Source: an uncultured delta proteobacterium
GTDB taxonomy: Bacteria > Myxococcota_A > Polyangia > Polyangiales > Houyiibacteriaceae
NCBI GenBank assembly: GCA_963699755.1
Contig: CAVOVB010000001.1
Span: 928,001 to 992,000 of the forward strand
Direction of reading: 5' to 3'
DNA length: 64,000 nucleotides
Shown here: piece by piece, positions 1 to 30,366 of the stretch
Layout of the letters: each line of letters opens with the position of its first letter
Numbering within the stretch: the first letter of the stretch is position 1
Translations under genes and position numbers: made by a program
Notes under the pieces: model-generated
Databases searched by the model: none
Told to the model about the DNA's origin: nothing
Seen by the model: the letters and a program-made list of their open reading frames with translations, nothing else

Positions 1-363
1 CTCGAAGACATACCGATAGCGAATCCGCGACGCGATCGGCTCCCAGTCGGTCCGAGCCGGCTCGAAGACGAACTGGCGAGCGGCCGCGAGTGCAGCTTCG
101 TCAAACGCCTCTCCTGCTGATAGCAGCACCGTCGCCTCGGTGACCAGCCCATCCTTGCCCACGACGATGTCGAGCTCGACCACTCTCTCCTCTGGCTCTT
201 CGCCTTCGGTTTCGGGGTAGGCGGCCTCGACGAAGCGAATGAGCCTCGGCGGTGTGATCAGGGGTTTGTTCTCGGACTCGGCGCCGGCTTTCGGCTCAGC
301 TTGCGCCTGCGCGCTGCTCGCGAGGATCCATAAGACCAAGAACGCGCCGACCAAGCGAAGCAC
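1..363 (-). CDS. TonB C-terminal-domain protein with signal peptide, probably the N-terminus of a TonB_C-fused TonB-dependent receptor (partial, runs off the window)
   Basis: Not in the ORF track. Manual translation from GTG 363 gives MLRLVGAFLVLWILASSAQAQ...TPPRLIRFVEAAYP...VELDIVVGKDGLVTEATVLLSAGEAFDEAALAAARQFVFEPAR...IRYRYVFE, a TonB_C signature. In-frame stop upstream at 391-393. Confidence 0.75.
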   Translation of the reverse strand, partial: MLRLVGAFLVLWILASSAQAQAEPKAGAESENKPLITPPRLIRFVEAAYPETEGEEPEERVVELDIVVGKDGLVTEATVLLSAGEAFDEAALAAARQFVFEPARTDWEPIASRIRYRYVFE

Positions 364-22695: not shown

Positions 22696-24531
22696 TCACA
22701 GTTCCGGCGGTTTGACGTAATACGAACCGAGAAGAAGAAACATCTCCTCTTCGGTGGTGACACCGCCGCCGGCCGGGCAGGCGTCACAAACGCCATCTTC
22801 GCCGCAGACGGAATCATCGCCATCGCAAAGCATGCCTTGGTTCGGGCCGCCGAAGCAGGAGCGCTCCTCTTCCGCACAGCCGCAGGCATAGATGTCGATG
22901 CCCTGCGATCGAGCGAACTGCGCGATCGCGCCGACGAAAGTGCAGGTTTCCGCTTCCGGCTTGAGCGACTCACGCCGAACCTCCATCGGATTGGTCGCAC
23001 CATTGTCGTAGCGGGCGCAGTACCTGAAGGTGCGGTCTTCCTCGTTGGGGCTGTCGAAGGTGAGGATCTCGTCGCCGGTGAAGCGCTGATAGAGTGGATC
23101 TCCATAGTCGTAGCTCGCGTAGTCCGGCTCCCGATCGGCCGGACCGCAGTCCGGGTCACGCGTATTGCAGACCGCATTCGGCGGATACCAAACTCGGAAC
23201 TCCTTGCCGAAACGATGGGTGTGTGAGCTCAGCGTCAGCAACTGCCCATGCTGTGGAATCGTGAATGTCGTGCAGACTTCTTTGGAAGAAAACGCCTCGA
23301 TGCGGCCCATTCCGAAGAGGTCGCCAGCGTCGAAGATCTGCTCGCGCGGGTAGACCATCTCTTCGGCCTCCGCGAACTCGAGGTTCATCCATTGCTCGAC
23401 CGAGGTGTCGGTCTTGGTGAGATTGAAGGCATGGCTGTCCCAAATGACGAAGCCTTTGACTGGCATGAGGGAGAACACATTCGGCGGGTATTTCTCGCGG
23501 AAGGTCGCCTCCTGCGCGGTGGCCAGGTTGAGCCTGACCTCCGCTGCGCCGAAGAGACCCGCTGCGGTCCCCATCTGAGGAGGACCATTGGCGTAGAAGA
23601 TGCACGCGACCGTCGTCGCAGGCGCTGTGGCGCACTGACCACGATCGCCACACTCGTCACTTCCCGGGGCACAGGTCGCGCCCGCGTTCGAGCCCCCGAG
23701 GCAAGTCCAATTCCTCCAGTATTGCTCGTTGTTTGGATCGTACTGGGCTTCTTCGCCTTCGGGCGGAACGTAGAACTCGACGATGCTGTGGTGGGACTGG
23801 GGATCCTGGGCGAGCAACACCTCGTTGTAGGCGAAACATTCTCGTTCGGGACCGCCCTGCGTTTCACCGCAGGGCACCTTGAGCTCCTCCGGGATGCGGT
23901 CCGAGTAGTCGTAGTAGGTGACGAAGCAGACCTCGCCCTCCTGTTCGGCAGGAACCTCCCAGCCGCCGGAATAGAATTGAACGCCCTGATCCGCCGCAGG
24001 CGTCGGCAGCGGCTGAATCTTGTTCGGCGCGATCTCGCCTTCGAGCTCACAGGACGCAAACTGCGCTGAGCCATTGACGATCCCGGTTTCGGGCGCGCCA
24101 CCGCGGATCCATGCGCGCAGTAGGCCTAGATCATCTTCGCTCAGGACAGCATCACCGGTGGGCATCGCGCCGCCGGAAATGCCCAGTGGGCCGAGCTCAA
24201 AGTCCTCCGTCTTCGCGGCGACCTTCTGGTAGAGCAAGCTGAGGTCCTGCTCGGCAGGGAACACCCGGACGTAGTCACCGGAGCTCGCCTCGACGTTGAC
24301 GAGATTCGCGTAGGCCTGCGCCGGTCGAAGGTCGAGCCCTCCATTGGCCGTTTCACCGTGGCATGCCGATGCGGTGCAGCCTTTGGCCTCGAAGATCTGC
24401 TGCTGCACTTGCGCGAAGGTGCTGTCGGCGTCGCACTTCTGACCGGAGGGGACGACGGTCGCGCTGTCGGTGCCACATGCCGCGAGAGTCAGGGTCGCGA
24501 TCGCGGCGATCGCCAATTGAACGGGATTCAT
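22696..24531 (-). CDS. Lipoprotein: cytochrome c-like domain fused to copper type II monooxygenase-like domains
   Basis: Lipobox LAAC; CTASACHG..GGLDL, AMP and WIRGGAP; then SHHS, WDSHAFN, SSHTHRFG and EEMF. Confidence 0.7.
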   Translation of the reverse strand: MNPVQLAIAAIATLTLAACGTDSATVVPSGQKCDADSTFAQVQQQIFEAKGCTASACHGETANGGLDLRPAQAYANLVNVEASSGDYVRVFPAEQDLSLLYQKVAAKTEDFELGPLGISGGAMPTGDAVLSEDDLGLLRAWIRGGAPETGIVNGSAQFASCELEGEIAPNKIQPLPTPAADQGVQFYSGGWEVPAEQEGEVCFVTYYDYSDRIPEELKVPCGETQGGPERECFAYNEVLLAQDPQSHHSIVEFYVPPEGEEAQYDPNNEQYWRNWTCLGGSNAGATCAPGSDECGDRGQCATAPATTVACIFYANGPPQMGTAAGLFGAAEVRLNLATAQEATFREKYPPNVFSLMPVKGFVIWDSHAFNLTKTDTSVEQWMNLEFAEAEEMVYPREQIFDAGDLFGMGRIEAFSSKEVCTTFTIPQHGQLLTLSSHTHRFGKEFRVWYPPNAVCNTRDPDCGPADREPDYASYDYGDPLYQRFTGDEILTFDSPNEEDRTFRYCARYDNGATNPMEVRRESLKPEAETCTFVGAIAQFARSQGIDIYACGCAEEERSCFGGPNQGMLCDGDDSVCGEDGVCDACPAGGGVTTEEEMFLLLGSYYVKPPEL

Positions 24532-24654: not shown

Positions 24655-26430
24655 TTAGGGTAGGGGCTCGGCAACGAAGTAGGAGCCTAGGGGGATGAAC
24701 ATCTCGTCATCGGTCGTGATGCCGCCGAGAAGCGGGCAGGCGTCGCAGACCCCCTCAGGGCCACATACCGAATCGTCGCCTTCGCAGCGCTCGCCCTGCT
24801 TGTCGCCGCCGAGGCAGACGCGCTCCTCCGGCAGGCAGCCGCAATGGGCGAACGGAACGCCGCAGACCGGCGTGTTCGGCTTGGTCGAGTCGCGCTTCAC
24901 CTTAAGAGGATCGTCGGCGCCGTTGTCGTAGACCGCGCAGGCCTTGAGCGTGCGGTCCGCCTCGCCCGCGGAGGAGTAGTCGTTCGGCGGATCATAATAG
25001 GTGTAGAGCGGGTCGTCGTAGAGCCTGCTCTCGTAGTCGGCAGTCGTGTCGGGCGGGCGGCAAGCGCTCGTGCTCGCGCAGGGCTCGTTTGGCGGTAGCC
25101 AAATCCGGAAGAGCTCGCCGCGAATGTGCATGTGAGAGCTCAGCGAGAGGAGCTGTGCGTACTGCGGCAGGGTCCAGGTCATGCAGACCTCCTGCTTGGT
25201 GAAGGGCGCGACTGTGCCCATCGCGAAGATATTGTCCGCTTCGAAGATCTGCCTGCGAATGAACTGTCGCCCCGACTCGGGCACGAAGCTGAGGTTCACC
25301 CACTGCTCAATCGACGTCGCTTTCTTGGTGAGGTTGAAGCCGTGGCTGTTCCACGAGACGAAGCCCTTGAGTGGCAAGACCGAGTAGACACCCGGCGGAG
25401 GGAGGTCGATCGCAGTCGATTCCTGAGCTCCGCCAAGCTGAACTAGTGTGTCACTGTCGGAGGTGAGGAAGCCGGCGCCCACGCCGAAGTCGTCCGGCGC
25501 GAAGCGGTACCCGATGCAGGCCACCGAGGTGCGCACCGGGGTCGTGCACTGGCTCCGTGCGCCGCAGGCATCGGCCTCGGTCGGGTCGCAGGCTTCCCCC
25601 GCTTTGACGCCCCCTAGGCAGGTCCAGGGCCCCCAGTCGCCCCCATTGGGGTCGGACTCGGGCGTGTAAACGCCGATGATGCTGTGGTGTGACTGACCAT
25701 CCTGGGCGAGCTCGTTTCGGCCGAAGGCAAAGCACTTCCGACCTTCGCCGAACTGATCGCAGTCGACCTGGTACTCGGCCGGCACCTGGTCGGTGAAGTC
25801 GTAGTAGCTTGCAAAGCAGACCTCGTCTTCGGACTCGCCGTCGAGGTCCCAACCCCCCGCGTAGAACTGCACGCCTTCATCCTGGGCGGGTGCGGGGAGG
25901 GGATTGATCTTATTTGGCTCCGGTTCGAAGCTGCCGTCGCAACCGAGAAGCTCGAGCGTCCCTCCGACGATCGAATCGGCGGGTGCGCCCGCTCGAATCC
26001 AAATCCGGATCGCCTCGAGCTGGTCGGAGCTCAGCGGCTCCAGACCGATGGGCATTGCTTGGCCGAGAGCGCCTGGGTTGGTGCCTTCCGTTCCCGCCGC
26101 GAGCTTCTTGTAGAGAAGGCTCAGCTCCTCGTCGCCCGGAAGGACCCGCTCGATCGAGGGATCGATCTTGCTCGATCGCCGAACCAGGGCATCGAACGAC
26201 GCACCTGCGCGAAGGTCGAGTTCGCCGAGCATGTCTTTGCCGTGACAGGTGCTTGCGGTGCATCCCTGGGCTTCGAAGATGGTCGTTTGAATCGCGTCGT
26301 AGGTGCTCGCGTAATTGCAATCCTTGAGTGTGCTGCCCGAATTCGAGTCCGAGCTGCAAGCAGCCAAAACGAGCACCGATAGCGCTGAAACGAGAACCAA
26401 AGAAGAGCTGTGTTTCGGCATTGGTCTCAT
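24655..26430 (-). CDS. Paralogous lipoprotein: cytochrome c-like domain fused to copper type II monooxygenase-like domains
   Basis: Lipobox LAAC; CTASTCHG, AMP and WIRAGAP; SHHS, WNSHGFN, SSHMHIRG and DEMF. Start at ATG 26430 or 26421. Confidence 0.7.
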   Translation of the reverse strand: MRPMPKHSSSLVLVSALSVLVLAACSSDSNSGSTLKDCNYASTYDAIQTTIFEAQGCTASTCHGKDMLGELDLRAGASFDALVRRSSKIDPSIERVLPGDEELSLLYKKLAAGTEGTNPGALGQAMPIGLEPLSSDQLEAIRIWIRAGAPADSIVGGTLELLGCDGSFEPEPNKINPLPAPAQDEGVQFYAGGWDLDGESEDEVCFASYYDFTDQVPAEYQVDCDQFGEGRKCFAFGRNELAQDGQSHHSIIGVYTPESDPNGGDWGPWTCLGGVKAGEACDPTEADACGARSQCTTPVRTSVACIGYRFAPDDFGVGAGFLTSDSDTLVQLGGAQESTAIDLPPPGVYSVLPLKGFVSWNSHGFNLTKKATSIEQWVNLSFVPESGRQFIRRQIFEADNIFAMGTVAPFTKQEVCMTWTLPQYAQLLSLSSHMHIRGELFRIWLPPNEPCASTSACRPPDTTADYESRLYDDPLYTYYDPPNDYSSAGEADRTLKACAVYDNGADDPLKVKRDSTKPNTPVCGVPFAHCGCLPEERVCLGGDKQGERCEGDDSVCGPEGVCDACPLLGGITTDDEMFIPLGSYFVAEPLP

Positions 26431-26536
26431 CGTCCCGGCGGGTCTGGAGCTGAAATACAAAAGGTCAACTGATTCCGGTTCAATTGACGGAGAGCGGTGA
26501 TTGGCGCAAGCCTTGCGCCTCTCTGGAGAACCTCCG

Positions 26537-26983
26537 ATGCCGCTCGAAATCCTCTTCAAGACCGCCAACTACGCGATCATTCCGTTCTGGTTGCTGCTGA
26601 TCGTCGCCCCGCGCTGGTCCTGGACACAGCGATTGGTGTACGGGCCAGTCGCGCTTCTGCTGCTCTCGCCGATCTACGCGTACATGCTCTTTGGCTATGG
26701 ACCAGGGCCCGAAGGTGTGGAGTTCCGTTCGCTCTATGGCGTGATGCAAGGGTTTTCGGTGCCGCAGCTCGTGGTCGCGGGTTGGATTCACTATCTGATC
26801 TTCGATTTGTTCGTCGGCGCTTGGGAGACGCGGGATGCACAGCGGCGCGGGATCCCCCATCTCCTCGTGATCCCTTGTCTCATCGCGACCCTGCTGGTCG
26901 GGCCTCTGGGGCTTCTCCTCTACGTGCTCCTGCGCTTCTTCGCCAAGGGGGTCCTCGAGTACGACGAGGCGGGAACCCTTTGA
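26537..26983 (+). CDS. ABA4-like (DUF4281) membrane protein
   Basis: PFWLLLIVAPRWSWT, AGWIHYLIFDLFVG, PCL..TLLVGPLGLL; GGAG RBS before ATG 26537. Confidence 0.85.
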   Translation: MPLEILFKTANYAIIPFWLLLIVAPRWSWTQRLVYGPVALLLLSPIYAYMLFGYGPGPEGVEFRSLYGVMQGFSVPQLVVAGWIHYLIFDLFVGAWETRDAQRRGIPHLLVIPCLIATLLVGPLGLLLYVLLRFFAKGVLEYDEAGTL

Positions 26984-27027
26984 GGCCCCGCGACGCCGGG
27001 CACCTGGGAGCAGGGTCACGGCGCGCA

Positions 27028-27063
27028 ATTAAGTGGGGCCAGCGCCATTACTGGCGCCGGCCC
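27028..27063 (-). terminator. Terminal hairpin (probable terminator)
   Basis: GGGCCGGCGCCA-GUAA-UGGCGCUGGCCC followed by CACUUAAU (weak U tract); lies between convergent units. Confidence 0.55.
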
Positions 27064-27107
27064 TCGTTGATCCGGACTCCCACCAAGGGGGGGAGCTCGC
27101 CTAAGGG

Positions 27108-27164
27108 CTAACTCGCCCGCACCTCCGGTGCGAGTCCGATTCTAGAATTGCTGTCCATATGCAT
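27108..27164 (-). CDS. Possible small ORF (MH)MDSNSRIGLAPEVRAS
   Basis: Strong SD GGGGGAGG (27168-27175) before ATG 27164 and ATG 27158; TAG at 27108-27110. Confidence 0.3.
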   Translation of the reverse strand: MHMDSNSRIGLAPEVRAS

Positions 27165-27390
27165 ATTCCTCCCCCGGCGATGCCGGCGCTCTTGGGTCTC
27201 TGAGCACCATGCCCAGACCACGCGGAGCGTTCCTTGGTGGTTAGACCCACGGATATCGAGGGCCGATTCACGGCAGCGAGTCTCCTTTCGGAGTTCGCAC
27301 CAGCGCGGGGCAATTCACCCAACCGCCGCCAGCGATGAGTCGCATCGCAAAAAGGAGAACCCTTCTTCGGGCAACGCCACTCACGCCATC

Positions 27391-27419
27391 AAGATAGTCC
27401 CTAGGCCCGATCGCGCCAA
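27391..27419 (-). promoter_or_regulatory. Sigma70-like promoter
   Basis: TTGGCG (27419-27414), 17-nt spacer, TATCTT (27396-27391). Confidence 0.5.
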
Positions 27420-27432
27420 GTCCAGAACTGAC

Positions 27433-28200
27433 TCAGAGAAGGAATTCGTCTTCCAGTTGCAAAATCTGAAGGTTACGCCCCGGGATCTGCGCAAGCTCTC
27501 GAAGCACCTTGGCCTCGAACGTGGGCTTGATGTGATAGAGCAAGATTGGAAGCGCATCGGTTTGGGTCAGCTTGTCGAGCTCGGACGAAAGCATCTCCGG
27601 AGTGAGATGCCGAGATGCCCAGGCGAGGTCGGTTTCGTCGTTTGGAAACGAGACTTCCATCATCAGCGCTTGAAGATCGTCGAGTGCGTTGATTCGTGTC
27701 CAAAGATCTTCGGTCGGTCCCGTGTCTCCACCGTAGACGATGCTCTTGCCGTTCTGACGAATGATGAACGCAGAGGTGTCGACGGTGTGGTTCACCAGGA
27801 CCGGCGTGACTTCGTAACCGTCGACAGCGGCGGCCTGGTTCGGCTGCACTTCGACGTAGCGTACCGTCGGTCCGCCCCTGGCATCGATCTGCGTGAAGTC
27901 CGGCCAGAGGATGTCATTGAAGAAGTGCCTTCGGAGCGCATGGATGGTTTCGGGGATTCCGACGATCTCGAGCGTCGAGCCACCTTGCTGGCATCGATTG
28001 TCCGCAAGCGTGGCGAGGTCACGAACGTGGTCCATGTGCGGGTGACTCACGAGGACCGAGCGAATGCGCGCCTGTTCGTCGAGCGAAAGAGAGCTCGTGA
28101 TGGCGCCGGCATCGATCGCCAGGCTGTCGCCTACCATGAAGCTGGAGGTTCGATGTTTGGGCGTTTCACCGCCATGACAGCCAAGCACTCGGAGCAGCAT
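27433..28200 (-). CDS. 3',5'-cyclic-nucleotide phosphodiesterase, metallo-beta-lactamase fold
   Basis: LRVLGCHGG, IDAG, SHPHMDH, HFFNDILWPDF, VNHTV, GDTGPT, EVSFPN, HLTP, YHIKP. Confidence 0.85.
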   Translation of the reverse strand: MLLRVLGCHGGETPKHRTSSFMVGDSLAIDAGAITSSLSLDEQARIRSVLVSHPHMDHVRDLATLADNRCQQGGSTLEIVGIPETIHALRRHFFNDILWPDFTQIDARGGPTVRYVEVQPNQAAAVDGYEVTPVLVNHTVDTSAFIIRQNGKSIVYGGDTGPTEDLWTRINALDDLQALMMEVSFPNDETDLAWASRHLTPEMLSSELDKLTQTDALPILLYHIKPTFEAKVLRELAQIPGRNLQILQLEDEFLL

Positions 28201-28826
28201 CAGGGTGCCCCTGAATTACGGATGAAATCGAGGAACTCGAGGAGCCGCTGGCCGTCTTTGATGAGGACGAATCCGCTCGACACCTCGACGACACCGACAC
28301 GAGTCAGTCGCCGAAGGGCTGCGCGCACTTCGCTCTCGTCGACGCCCAGGGCAAGCGCCAGATCCTTATCGGTCACATGAGGTGCAGCCGAGCTCGTGGC
28401 TCGTTCGAGGATTGCCTGAAGCTCGAGGATCACGCGCGCGGTCGTGTCGTCTTCGAGAAGAAGATCGATGAACCGATTCGCATTCTCGATGCGTTCAGCG
28501 AGCTGTCGAATCAATCGAATCGCAACCTCACCGTTCCCAGCGACCATCTCTTGAAGCTTGGTGGCCGGAATTTTCAAGAGCTCCGCCTCTTCGAGCACCT
28601 CGGCGGTTGCCGTGCGAGGACGACCGGTGACGACAGCCATCTCTCCGAAGAAATCCCCAGGGCCGAGCGTAGTGACGACGCGCTTTTTGCCGTGGGCCTC
28701 TTTGAGGACGCGGATCTTCCCGGCGCGAATGACGTACATCGAGCCACCCGGGTCGCCTTGACGGAAAACCGTCTTACCCCGGGGCACGCGAACACCAAAT
28801 CTGTCAGCCAAAGACTGAGCTGTCAT
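28200..28826 (-). CDS. Crp/Fnr-family cyclic nucleotide-binding regulator
   Basis: VFRQGDPG.SMYVI..G, FFGEMA...RPRTATA and a C-terminal HTH-like segment; start at ATG 28826. Confidence 0.85.
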   Translation of the reverse strand: MTAQSLADRFGVRVPRGKTVFRQGDPGGSMYVIRAGKIRVLKEAHGKKRVVTTLGPGDFFGEMAVVTGRPRTATAEVLEEAELLKIPATKLQEMVAGNGEVAIRLIRQLAERIENANRFIDLLLEDDTTARVILELQAILERATSSAAPHVTDKDLALALGVDESEVRAALRRLTRVGVVEVSSGFVLIKDGQRLLEFLDFIRNSGAP

Positions 28827-28905
28827 ACCCCCACCGCATTCAATGTACTCCGCTGCGAAGTCGACCGCCAGATCGATAGGCCCTAATCTCGTGAAGGAGG
28901 GCTCG

Positions 28906-30366
28906 ATGACGCTCGACTGGCAGCAAGTCCAGGAATTCGCGCCGGAGTTGGGACTGGTGCTCGACTTCATCGTCGCGCTGGCAGCGTCCTCGCACGTCAT
29001 TCTCAACAAGAGCGACACCCGCTCGGCGACGGCATGGGTGGGACTGATTTGGCTGGTTCCGTTCGTCGGCTCGCTTCTCTACATCTTCCTCGGGATCAAC
29101 CGGATAGAGCGGCGCGCGAAGATCCTCAAGTCCGGCGTCACCGACTACAGCGTCCCGCTGGACGAGGCTCCACGTTCGCCGGCAGATTTGGATCGGGAGC
29201 TCGGAAGTAGCCGTGCGCGATTGATCGAGCTCGCCCGAGTGGTGGCCGGCGTCACGGGCCGACCCTTGCTGGTGGGCAACCACGTCGAACGCCTCGTCGA
29301 TGGCGATGAAGCATATCCAGCCATGATCGGTGCGGTTCGCGACGCGAAGGAATCGATCTCGCTCATGAGCTACATCTTCGAAGCCGAAGGCATCGGGGCC
29401 GTGCTGATCGATGCGCTCGCGGAGGCCATCGATCGCGGAGTCGAAGTCCGTGTCTTGGTGGACGACGTCGGCGTGCGTTACGCGCGCCCTCGAATCCATC
29501 GCGTCTTGAGGAAGCGAGGTATCCCGGTCGCGAACTTTCTGCCCGCATTGCTGCCTCGCTCCGTCACGCATTTCAACCTGCGGAACCACTGCAAGGTCCT
29601 GGTCGTGGACGGACGACTTGGGTTCACCGGTGGCATGAACATTCGTCAGGCCTCGGTCTTGGCCTCGAAGCCAGCCTATCCGACCAAGGACCTGCACTTC
29701 CGTGTCCTCGGTCCGGTCGTGGCGCAGCTCCAGGAGGCGTTTGCGCGCGATTGGGCATTCACGACGGGGGAGCGCTTGGCCGGGCGCCGCTGGTTTCCCG
29801 AGCTTCGACCGGCGGGAGAGACGCTAGCGCGTGCCATCGCCGACGGCCCAGATCGGGACCTCAACACGCTACATTGGGTGTTCCTCGCGGCGATTGGTGC
29901 AGCGCGGCGCTCGATCCGAATCATGACGCCGTACTTCTTGCCGGACCAGGTTCTGATCAAGGCGCTTCACCTCGCCGCCCAACGCGGAGTCGAGGTCGAC
30001 ATCATCGTGCCGGAGGTCGGAAACCTCCCGGTCGTGCGTTGGGCAATGTGGGGCCAGTACCGTCAGGTACTCGATGATGGAGTTCGACTCTGGCTCACGC
30101 CGCCGCCCTTCGATCATTCGAAGCTGTTCGTCGTCGATGGCTACTGGTCGTCGATCGGCTCGGCAAACTGGGACCCACGCAGCTTGCGCTTGAGCTTCGA
30201 GCTCAACTTGGAGTGCTACGACGAGGAGCTCGGGGCGAGTCTCGAAGATCACGTCCGAAACCGCCTGCTGGACGCACGGCTGCTGACGGTGGAAGAGCTC
30301 GACGGCCGTTCGCTTTTTCTGAGGCTTCGAGACGGGACCGCGCGGCTCTGGAAACCTTATCTCTGA
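28906..30366 (+). CDS. cls: Cardiolipin synthase (phospholipase D family)
   Basis: PLDc_N helices and two HKD motifs (NHCKVLVVDG, DHSKLFVVDG); AAGGAGG RBS before ATG 28906. Confidence 0.9.
   Translation: MTLDWQQVQEFAPELGLVLDFIVALAASSHVILNKSDTRSATAWVGLIWLVPFVGSLLYIFLGINRIERRAKILKSGVTDYSVPLDEAPRSPADLDRELGSSRARLIELARVVAGVTGRPLLVGNHVERLVDGDEAYPAMIGAVRDAKESISLMSYIFEAEGIGAVLIDALAEAIDRGVEVRVLVDDVGVRYARPRIHRVLRKRGIPVANFLPALLPRSVTHFNLRNHCKVLVVDGRLGFTGGMNIRQASVLASKPAYPTKDLHFRVLGPVVAQLQEAFARDWAFTTGERLAGRRWFPELRPAGETLARAIADGPDRDLNTLHWVFLAAIGAARRSIRIMTPYFLPDQVLIKALHLAAQRGVEVDIIVPEVGNLPVVRWAMWGQYRQVLDDGVRLWLTPPPFDHSKLFVVDGYWSSIGSANWDPRSLRLSFELNLECYDEELGASLEDHVRNRLLDARLLTVEELDGRSLFLRLRDGTARLWKPYL

Follow-up and report, generated by a model that had tools for sequence, protein, structure and literature searches.

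A candidate family of structured mini-mRNAs with a second Shine-Dalgarno site anchored to the stop codon in Polyangia and some related Myxococcota

The locus and its short open reading frame

The 64,000-nucleotide (nt) stretch analysed here (the window) belongs to an uncultured delta proteobacterium of the Houyiibacteriaceae, class Polyangia (assembly GCA_963699755.1, contig CAVOVB010000001.1, positions 928,001 to 992,000). Our subject is a minus-strand RNA gene within it, preceded by a metallo-beta-lactamase/class II cyclic AMP (cAMP) phosphodiesterase gene on the same strand (28200-27433), itself behind a CRP-like gene, and flanked on the other side by a convergent ABA4-like gene (26501-26983). 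A preliminary description, made from the sequence alone, had proposed a novel small RNA (sRNA) or regulatory RNA at this position. The element is indeed uncatalogued, conserved, structured and a gene of its own, but the non-coding reading was incomplete, as a short open reading frame (ORF) with a Shine-Dalgarno (SD) site at each end, here SD1 and SD2, had been overlooked. Comparison of homologues showed an independent, structured predicted transcript with covarying helices, an SD-led ORF of 12-23 codons and another SD whose position follows the stop codon. The features of the element are collected in Table 1.

Table 1. Predicted features of the element, with window coordinates. Counts for P3, P6 and P7 come from 37-45 diverse homologues anchored by hand; genus counts exclude the mis-registered rows P3, P6b and P0a; kcal/mol values compare cognate with non-cognate partners.
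Feature	Position	Strand	Remarks
Whole element, single-copy gene	promoter 27419-27391; RNA ~27384-27030; then terminator	minus	RNA ~355 nt
sigma70-type promoter	-35 TTGGCG 27419-27414; -10 TATCTT 27396-27391	minus	17-nt spacer; predicted start ~27384
P0, 5' leader hairpin	27335..27384	minus	sequence conserved in genus only; inner stem 145/154 cells paired in genus
5' four-way domain	27273..27329	minus	P1-P4; reduced or different in distant families
P1	27329-27324/27278-27273	minus	-14.1 vs -12.1 kcal/mol
P2	27320-27308	minus	paired in 30 rows, 6 rows unparsed
P3	27307-27296	minus	37/37 paired at all three pairs; third pair CG 19 / GC 16
P4, GNRA hairpin	27293-27282	minus	
P5, local hairpin	27244..27264	minus	one arm is the CGGCCCUCG repeat of the preliminary description; 142/176 cells paired, 6 two-sided changes in genus
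GAA-P6-P7 module	27174..27232	minus	most widely conserved module; P7 abuts SD1
Unpaired GAA	27232-27230	minus	
P6	27229-27187	minus	variable tip; first five pairs 40-42/42 canonical; CG/UA/GC/AU swaps
P7, CCGGC/GCCGG	27186-27174	minus	44-45/45 for four pairs; nearly invariant
SD1, GGGGGAGG	27175-27168	minus	GGAGG ends 9-10 nt before start codon in 46/61 homologues
Short ORF, MDSNSRIGLAPEVRAS	27158-27108; ATG 27158, TAG 27110-27108	minus	16 codons + TAG
SD2, internal GGAGGUG	27120..27126	minus	GGAGG ends 11 nt before stop codon
P8 rod	27074..27137; ORF arm 27137-27127 pairs with 27084-27074	minus	predicted to bury SD2 and stop region
Intrinsic terminator	region 27028..27063; hairpin 27063-27036	minus	U tract weak here, stronger in relatives

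The ORF, defined as a start 8-14 nt after an SD followed by a 12-25-codon frame, was observed in 87 of 88 distinct loci obtained from 130 profile matches (129 parsed), the exception lying at a contig end; shuffled sequences gave 8.8%. It was also found in all 41 structure-anchored loci, some of which repeat earlier ones (63 loci were examined for this anchor, with 20 outside the pattern, among them chance matches and some true homologues), and in 15 of 15 later matches. Across 61 diverse homologues its length ranged from 12 to 23 codons and it ended in TAG (27), TGA (22) or TAA (12), while the spacer between SD and start varied by single bases. Translation of the ORF is, in our judgment, very probable on this comparative record.

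The encoded peptide drifts, with distant families sharing almost nothing at the peptide level, and what is conserved amounts to a partial motif, M-x-S-T...GLSPEV..S. One explanation would be an mRNA for a functional micropeptide under heavy structural control, with GGAGG as a helix arm that also encodes Glu-Val. The strictly conserved frame, start and stop fit such an mRNA, as do Glu at position -5 in 35 of the 61 homologues, Val at -4 in 31 of the 61 with all four Val codons in use, and a Ser/Thr-rich N-terminus. At the Glu and Ser positions, nevertheless, a single codon predominates (Glu GAG 34 against GAA 1; third codon AGT 32 against AGC 1), and GGAGG is kept even where it is read in another frame, which argues for selection on nucleotides. 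In addition, our neighbour survey of homologues found no modifying enzymes or transporters recurring near the RNA. We therefore regard a functional micropeptide as unlikely, and the peptide is probably not the main product.

The position of SD2 followed the stop codon. Among 59 homologues, its GGAGG ended 11 nt ahead of the stop in 42 and 10-12 nt ahead of it in 49, but began anywhere from 21 to 50 nt after the start; in 8 of the 59 it was read in another frame. Pairing with the anti-SD was computed with the genome's own 16S tail, and the segment 19-9 nt before the stop reached -6 kcal/mol or lower in 58 of 61 homologues, compared with 85 of 700 long control genes of this genome. The same pairing was observed in 14 of 15 later matches. 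With a ribosome terminating at the stop, 8 nt would separate SD2 from the P-site codon, inside the 5-9 nt spacing given for initiation in PMC5711450. Re-initiation after SD2 was dropped, because a start codon occurs shortly 3' near the stop in only 4 of 61 homologues. On these sequence grounds we give about even chances to SD2 engaging the ribosome. Separately, a 152-nt copy of the 16S 3' end (including the anti-SD) and the beginning of the spacer, 85% identical, was observed outside the window at G000:C1:805815-805966, on the same strand as the true 16S end and 5.3 kb downstream of it.

Transcription signals and folded structure

The promoter and terminator of the preliminary description were both upheld by comparison, having been missed by strict scans (the sigma70 scan found 0 promoters at the element and the terminator scan did not call its terminator). 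The sequence CTTGGC..TATCTT is kept within the genus, and 31 of 60 diverse homologues carry the pattern TT[G/T]nnn-16..18-TAnnnT upstream, where 6.0 would be expected. A permissive search placed a terminator-like hairpin 3' of the stop in 34 of 35 representatives. Short tandem repeats were seen 3' of the terminator in several homologues (L048, L040, L105). A total of 24 public sequencing runs share words with the stretch, and in three of the four runs examined (from four studies) the RNA-library contigs cover only 27014-27369, while those of the fourth (X2) cover the flanking genes too. These runs were picked because they hold the stretch, and contigs give neither strand, ends nor level, so that the coverage is a weak hint of a stand-alone transcript and uncovered flanking genes are not evidence of silence.

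The minus strand folded to -181.1 kcal/mol (z -5.19, with 0 of 100 shuffles as good) and the plus strand to -158.6 kcal/mol (z -4.27). Every motif listed in the preliminary description is present where it had been placed, and three of its four hairpins (CUCC-GAAA-GGAG, the UCUGGGCA hairpin and the terminal hairpin) hold, whereas CUCGCACC-GGA-GGUGCGGG is unsupported as a conserved fold. The same applies to the long-range closure of a ~208-nt domain: in the window ensemble the pair probability was 0.0 for CCACCAAGG/CCUUGGUGG and 0.03 for CGGCCCUCG/CGAGGGCCG, a pairing that would break the terminator, compared with 1.0 for the rival helix P8 between the ORF and the 3' region. The three long-range repeats were 76%, 63% and 93% paired in 22 rows from the genus. 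Within the genus CCACCAAGG/CCUUGGUGG and SD1:CUCCCCC were 93-94% paired, and constrained folding placed the CCACCAAGG/CCUUGGUGG alternative at -172.7 against -175.5 kcal/mol, a gap of only 2.8; an alternative fold hiding SD1 is therefore possible inside this genus.

Covariation, the check proposed in the preliminary description, was examined in hand-anchored alignments of the collected homologues, and the helices covary. P6 was present in 14 of 15 later matches even though the search model omitted its 5' arm. The loop of P3 has the consensus AAUGGU, found as such in 21 homologues; a pseudoknot between this loop and the CCA before GAA was rejected, with no covariation as judged by eye. In distant families the 5' domain is reduced, and P5 (as a hairpin at that position), GAA, P6, P7, SD1, the ORF, SD2 and the terminator persist.

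Long-range pairing was assessed by comparing each homologue's segment with its own and with other homologues' partners in 39 diverse rows (five were skipped for want of an anchor or terminator, and the aberrant locus L234 was left out). P8 scored -14.5 kcal/mol for cognate and -11.3 for non-cognate partners, and 231 of 242 of its cells were paired in the genus. For the upstream arm favoured by the preliminary description the values were -12.0 and -11.0 kcal/mol. SD1 showed no cognate excess in pairing with upstream or ORF segments (p 0.36 and 0.93) and a weak one with the post-stop sequence (p 0.04).

Relation to known RNAs, distribution and neighbours

No Rfam family matched the element in the window at the gathering threshold, and up to an E-value of 10 only chance hairpin matches and two real tRNAs were observed; 12 diverse homologous loci likewise gave only chance matches. 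As the preliminary description had held, the element is not RNase P RNA, tmRNA or SRP RNA: the genome's own copies were located on contigs C3 and C8 and elsewhere on C1, with no model match in the window. The Pxr model (RF01812) did not match the element in a search where no positive control rang, and its use as a marker of Myxococcaceae in the phylum sample returned 0 of 151, so that it supplied no positive control there either. Ms_IGR-5 (RF02471) matched neither the element nor the genome, the genome search again being without a positive control. Our literature search found no description of this RNA, and Myxococcus non-coding RNA surveys could hold a relative.

A purely non-coding housekeeping RNA, such as a divergent 6S-like RNA or a protein scaffold with an accidental ORF, would suit the single copy and the rich covarying structure, and RF00013 finds no 6S RNA in this genome. 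However, a 6S RNA separate from this locus was detected in 25 of 41 relatives, carriers of the element among them, and the orthologous 6S locus of this genome lies on contig C2 (80-82% identity). The identification as 6S, which the preliminary description had given as an example of a known family whose match would remove the novelty, was dropped on these grounds. Frame-preserving indels and swaps of one stop codon for another would also be unexpected in a non-coding RNA, and we consider this explanation very unlikely.

A BLAST search detected the element in 22 of the 24 further genomes from the genus, usually in single copy; with a distant homologue as query, it reached other families (72 of 301, some of these being chance matches). 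The 5'-domain pattern alone gave 96 matches among GTDB species, 51 of which also carried the downstream module; the remainder were mostly chance matches in unrelated taxa, and a profile recovered 3 more. The R1 model was too genus-bound (10 of 151), while R2 detected 94 carriers, almost always with a single copy, among the 121 genomes of family f17. With R3 we observed matches in 33 of 151 genomes of the class, including families f26, f66, f68, f73, f74, f77, f81 and f83, with none among the 17-18 genomes each of f63, f69 and f70, and in 22 of 151 of the phylum, including family f53 of another class. Judged by these matches, homologues occur across the order, in eight additional families of the class and in a single family belonging to another class. 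The ORF region formed part of profiles R2 and R3 and of the nhmmer model; an ORF was no requirement for entering the initial BLAST and 5'-pattern sets.

An SD-pattern search outside the order gave matches at about the control level. Seventeen SD-pattern matches were fetched, of which 10 look real (one being L234) and 7 chance; of 10 inspected matches weaker than 1e-5, 8 were ordinary sequence and 2 real homologues. Viral contigs, searched with one pattern, gave no match. Named homologous records were nearly all metagenome-assembled genomes labelled Polyangiales, Sandaracinaceae, SG8_38, Myxococcota or deltaproteobacteria, and L149 is a true homologue under a non-myxobacterial submitter label. 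Two copies were observed in assemblies G016 (C303, C82) and G131 (C19, C74), where strain mixture or contig overlap is possible instead of paralogy.

Neighbours recurring across homologues include yceI, phosphodiesterase, CRP, vWA and ychF genes, on varying sides and strands. These arrangements bear on whether the RNA is a cis-acting leader, an attenuator or riboswitch of a downstream gene, for which the leader-peptide-like ORF, the alternative helices, the terminator and a same-strand yceI 3' of the RNA in L024, L036, L037, L042 and L065 could be cited. Against this, yceI is upstream and divergent in L080, L184 and L237, and the next gene is convergent to the RNA within the genus. Across 62 loci, the gene 3' of the RNA was on the opposite strand in 32, on the same strand in 25 and absent in 5, by an automatic ORF pick that was wrong in some cases (e.g. 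L001). The ORF holds no run of codons for an amino acid, and in most families P8 and the terminator do not overlap. Gene orientation thus largely refutes a cis-leader, which we hold to be highly improbable.

The CRP-like cyclic nucleotide-binding regulator and class II cAMP phosphodiesterase-like gene form a pair in the window (27433-29018, minus strand), seen near the RNA in several families, and these neighbours make a link of the RNA to cAMP possible. Two long lipoprotein-like genes (22696-24531 and 24655-26568, minus strand) lie between the ABA4-like gene and yceI, and the one scanned against Pfam gave no match. A tRNA-Gly(CCC) was found ~200-400 nt from the RNA in 6 of 35 loci scanned (L258, L260, L269, L274, L276 and L278), all in family f17; at one such locus (L230) a phage integrase gene is adjacent.

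Proposed function and comparison with known systems

Dual-function sRNAs (RNAIII/hld, SgrS/SgrT, SR1/SR1P) are independent RNA genes that combine structure with a short ORF, their peptides are conserved and functional, and they pair with targets in trans. The element resembles them as an independent structured RNA gene with a short ORF; its peptide shows a partial motif, and codon use points to nucleotide selection. A trans-acting regulatory RNA of this type might use the AAUGGU loop, the ACAGUAC after the start or a CUCUC as seed or protein site, exposed or hidden by translation of the ORF. The element's own promoter and terminator, its conserved single-stranded motifs and the selection at nucleotide level are compatible with such a role, and an Hfq-independent pairing sRNA is reported for M. 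xanthus (10.1101/2025.09.11.675593). Neither Hfq nor CsrA was found in this genome, however (for CsrA, in a search whose controls were detected in 3 of 14), distant families have lost the 5' domain that carries the AAUGGU loop, and the tracking of the stop codon by SD2 would be left unexplained; we find a trans-acting role rather unlikely. A CsrB/RsmZ-type sponge was dropped on the same CsrA result.

Leader-peptide attenuators and type I toxin mRNAs couple a short ORF to alternative long-range pairing and a terminator, all three of which the element shares. It differs in that no co-oriented gene is fixed 3' of it and its ORF holds no run of regulatory codons; its peptide is polar and variable, its gene is a single chromosomal copy, and no antisense partner was seen, none having been sought. 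Pxr, a myxobacterial stand-alone regulatory RNA as the element may be, is reported in PMC8538405 to have arisen in Cystobacterineae; its unmatched model has 109 positions against the ~355 nt here.

The closest known kind is rreB, which with rreR makes up small mRNAs of Alphaproteobacteria (Hahn et al., PMC5711450). As reported there, rreB is a stand-alone small transcript of 165 nt with a 17-nt extended SD and an ORF of ~14 codons; its peptide is unstructured, it binds 30S subunits tightly, and its regulation takes place at the RNA level. Both are stand-alone small transcripts with a short ORF, the 16 codons here falling within the 14-18 of the rreB/rreR type. In contrast, the extended SD of that type (at least 16 nt complementary to the 16S 3' end, upstream of the ORF) is absent from the element, whose longest perfect match to the 16S tail was 4-8 nt across the 61 homologues, and which differs from Ms_IGR-5 in this respect too. 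The element is also about twice as long as rreB, with a multi-domain fold and a second SD before the stop.

Our favoured proposal, which we advance tentatively and at somewhat less than even confidence, is a structured mini-mRNA, encoded by a stand-alone, single-copy gene in Polyangia and some of their relatives in Myxococcota, that would work by being translated and not through its peptide. The GAA-P6-P7 module beside SD1 would position the 30S subunit, and an elongating ribosome would unwind P8 and so free SD2 from the rod. Once the ribosome reached the stop codon, SD2 would pair with the 16S anti-SD at a start-like spacing and keep the ribosome, terminating or already past termination, attached to the RNA. 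In this way the RNA might act as a ribosome tether, or its fold or stability might signal the capacity for translation and recycling.

Several observations weigh against this mini-mRNA proposal. Predicted folds leave SD2 largely paired (mean unpaired 0.20, with 0.27 for SD1), and it may be just a helix arm, either of a CUC..GAG hairpin or with a post-stop CUCC; pairing of SD2 with the post-stop sequence showed little cognate excess (p 0.16 and 0.03). P8 is weak or absent in several families, with the cognate partner in the best decile in only 28%, and kinship of the homologues inflates the permutation p-values of the long-range test. The homologue L234 (G050:C1:~1849800), which has a 41-codon frame and whose 5' domain is altered, is not counted among the 61 representatives. 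Inclusion of the ORF region in the R2, R3 and nhmmer models biases later matches toward start, SD2 and stop. Finally, the X2 contigs span the flanking genes, and the runs were chosen for holding the stretch.

The element represents a genuine family, so far uncatalogued, of structured mini-mRNAs whose second SD is anchored to the stop. A bolder form of the proposal, which we consider doubtful, is a new class of myxobacterial housekeeping RNA: a mini-mRNA that would capture the ribosome twice, at initiation through SD1 and GAA-P6-P7 and at termination through an SD2 unmasked by the ribosome, and so store ribosomes or sense the activity of release and recycling. If true, it would offer a natural example in which an SD has been selected to serve the stop codon. 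An SD kept at a fixed stop distance across ORFs of 12-23 codons provides a natural experiment for asking whether SD:anti-SD pairing has a role in termination and recycling. The family widens the small set of translated small RNAs of the rreB type, whose peptide seems unimportant. It is also a widespread single-copy RNA gene family absent from Rfam, with relatives of large genome size that are likely cultured, making it testable, and, within reach of the literature searched, the first candidate conserved regulatory RNA for myxobacteria outside Myxococcales.
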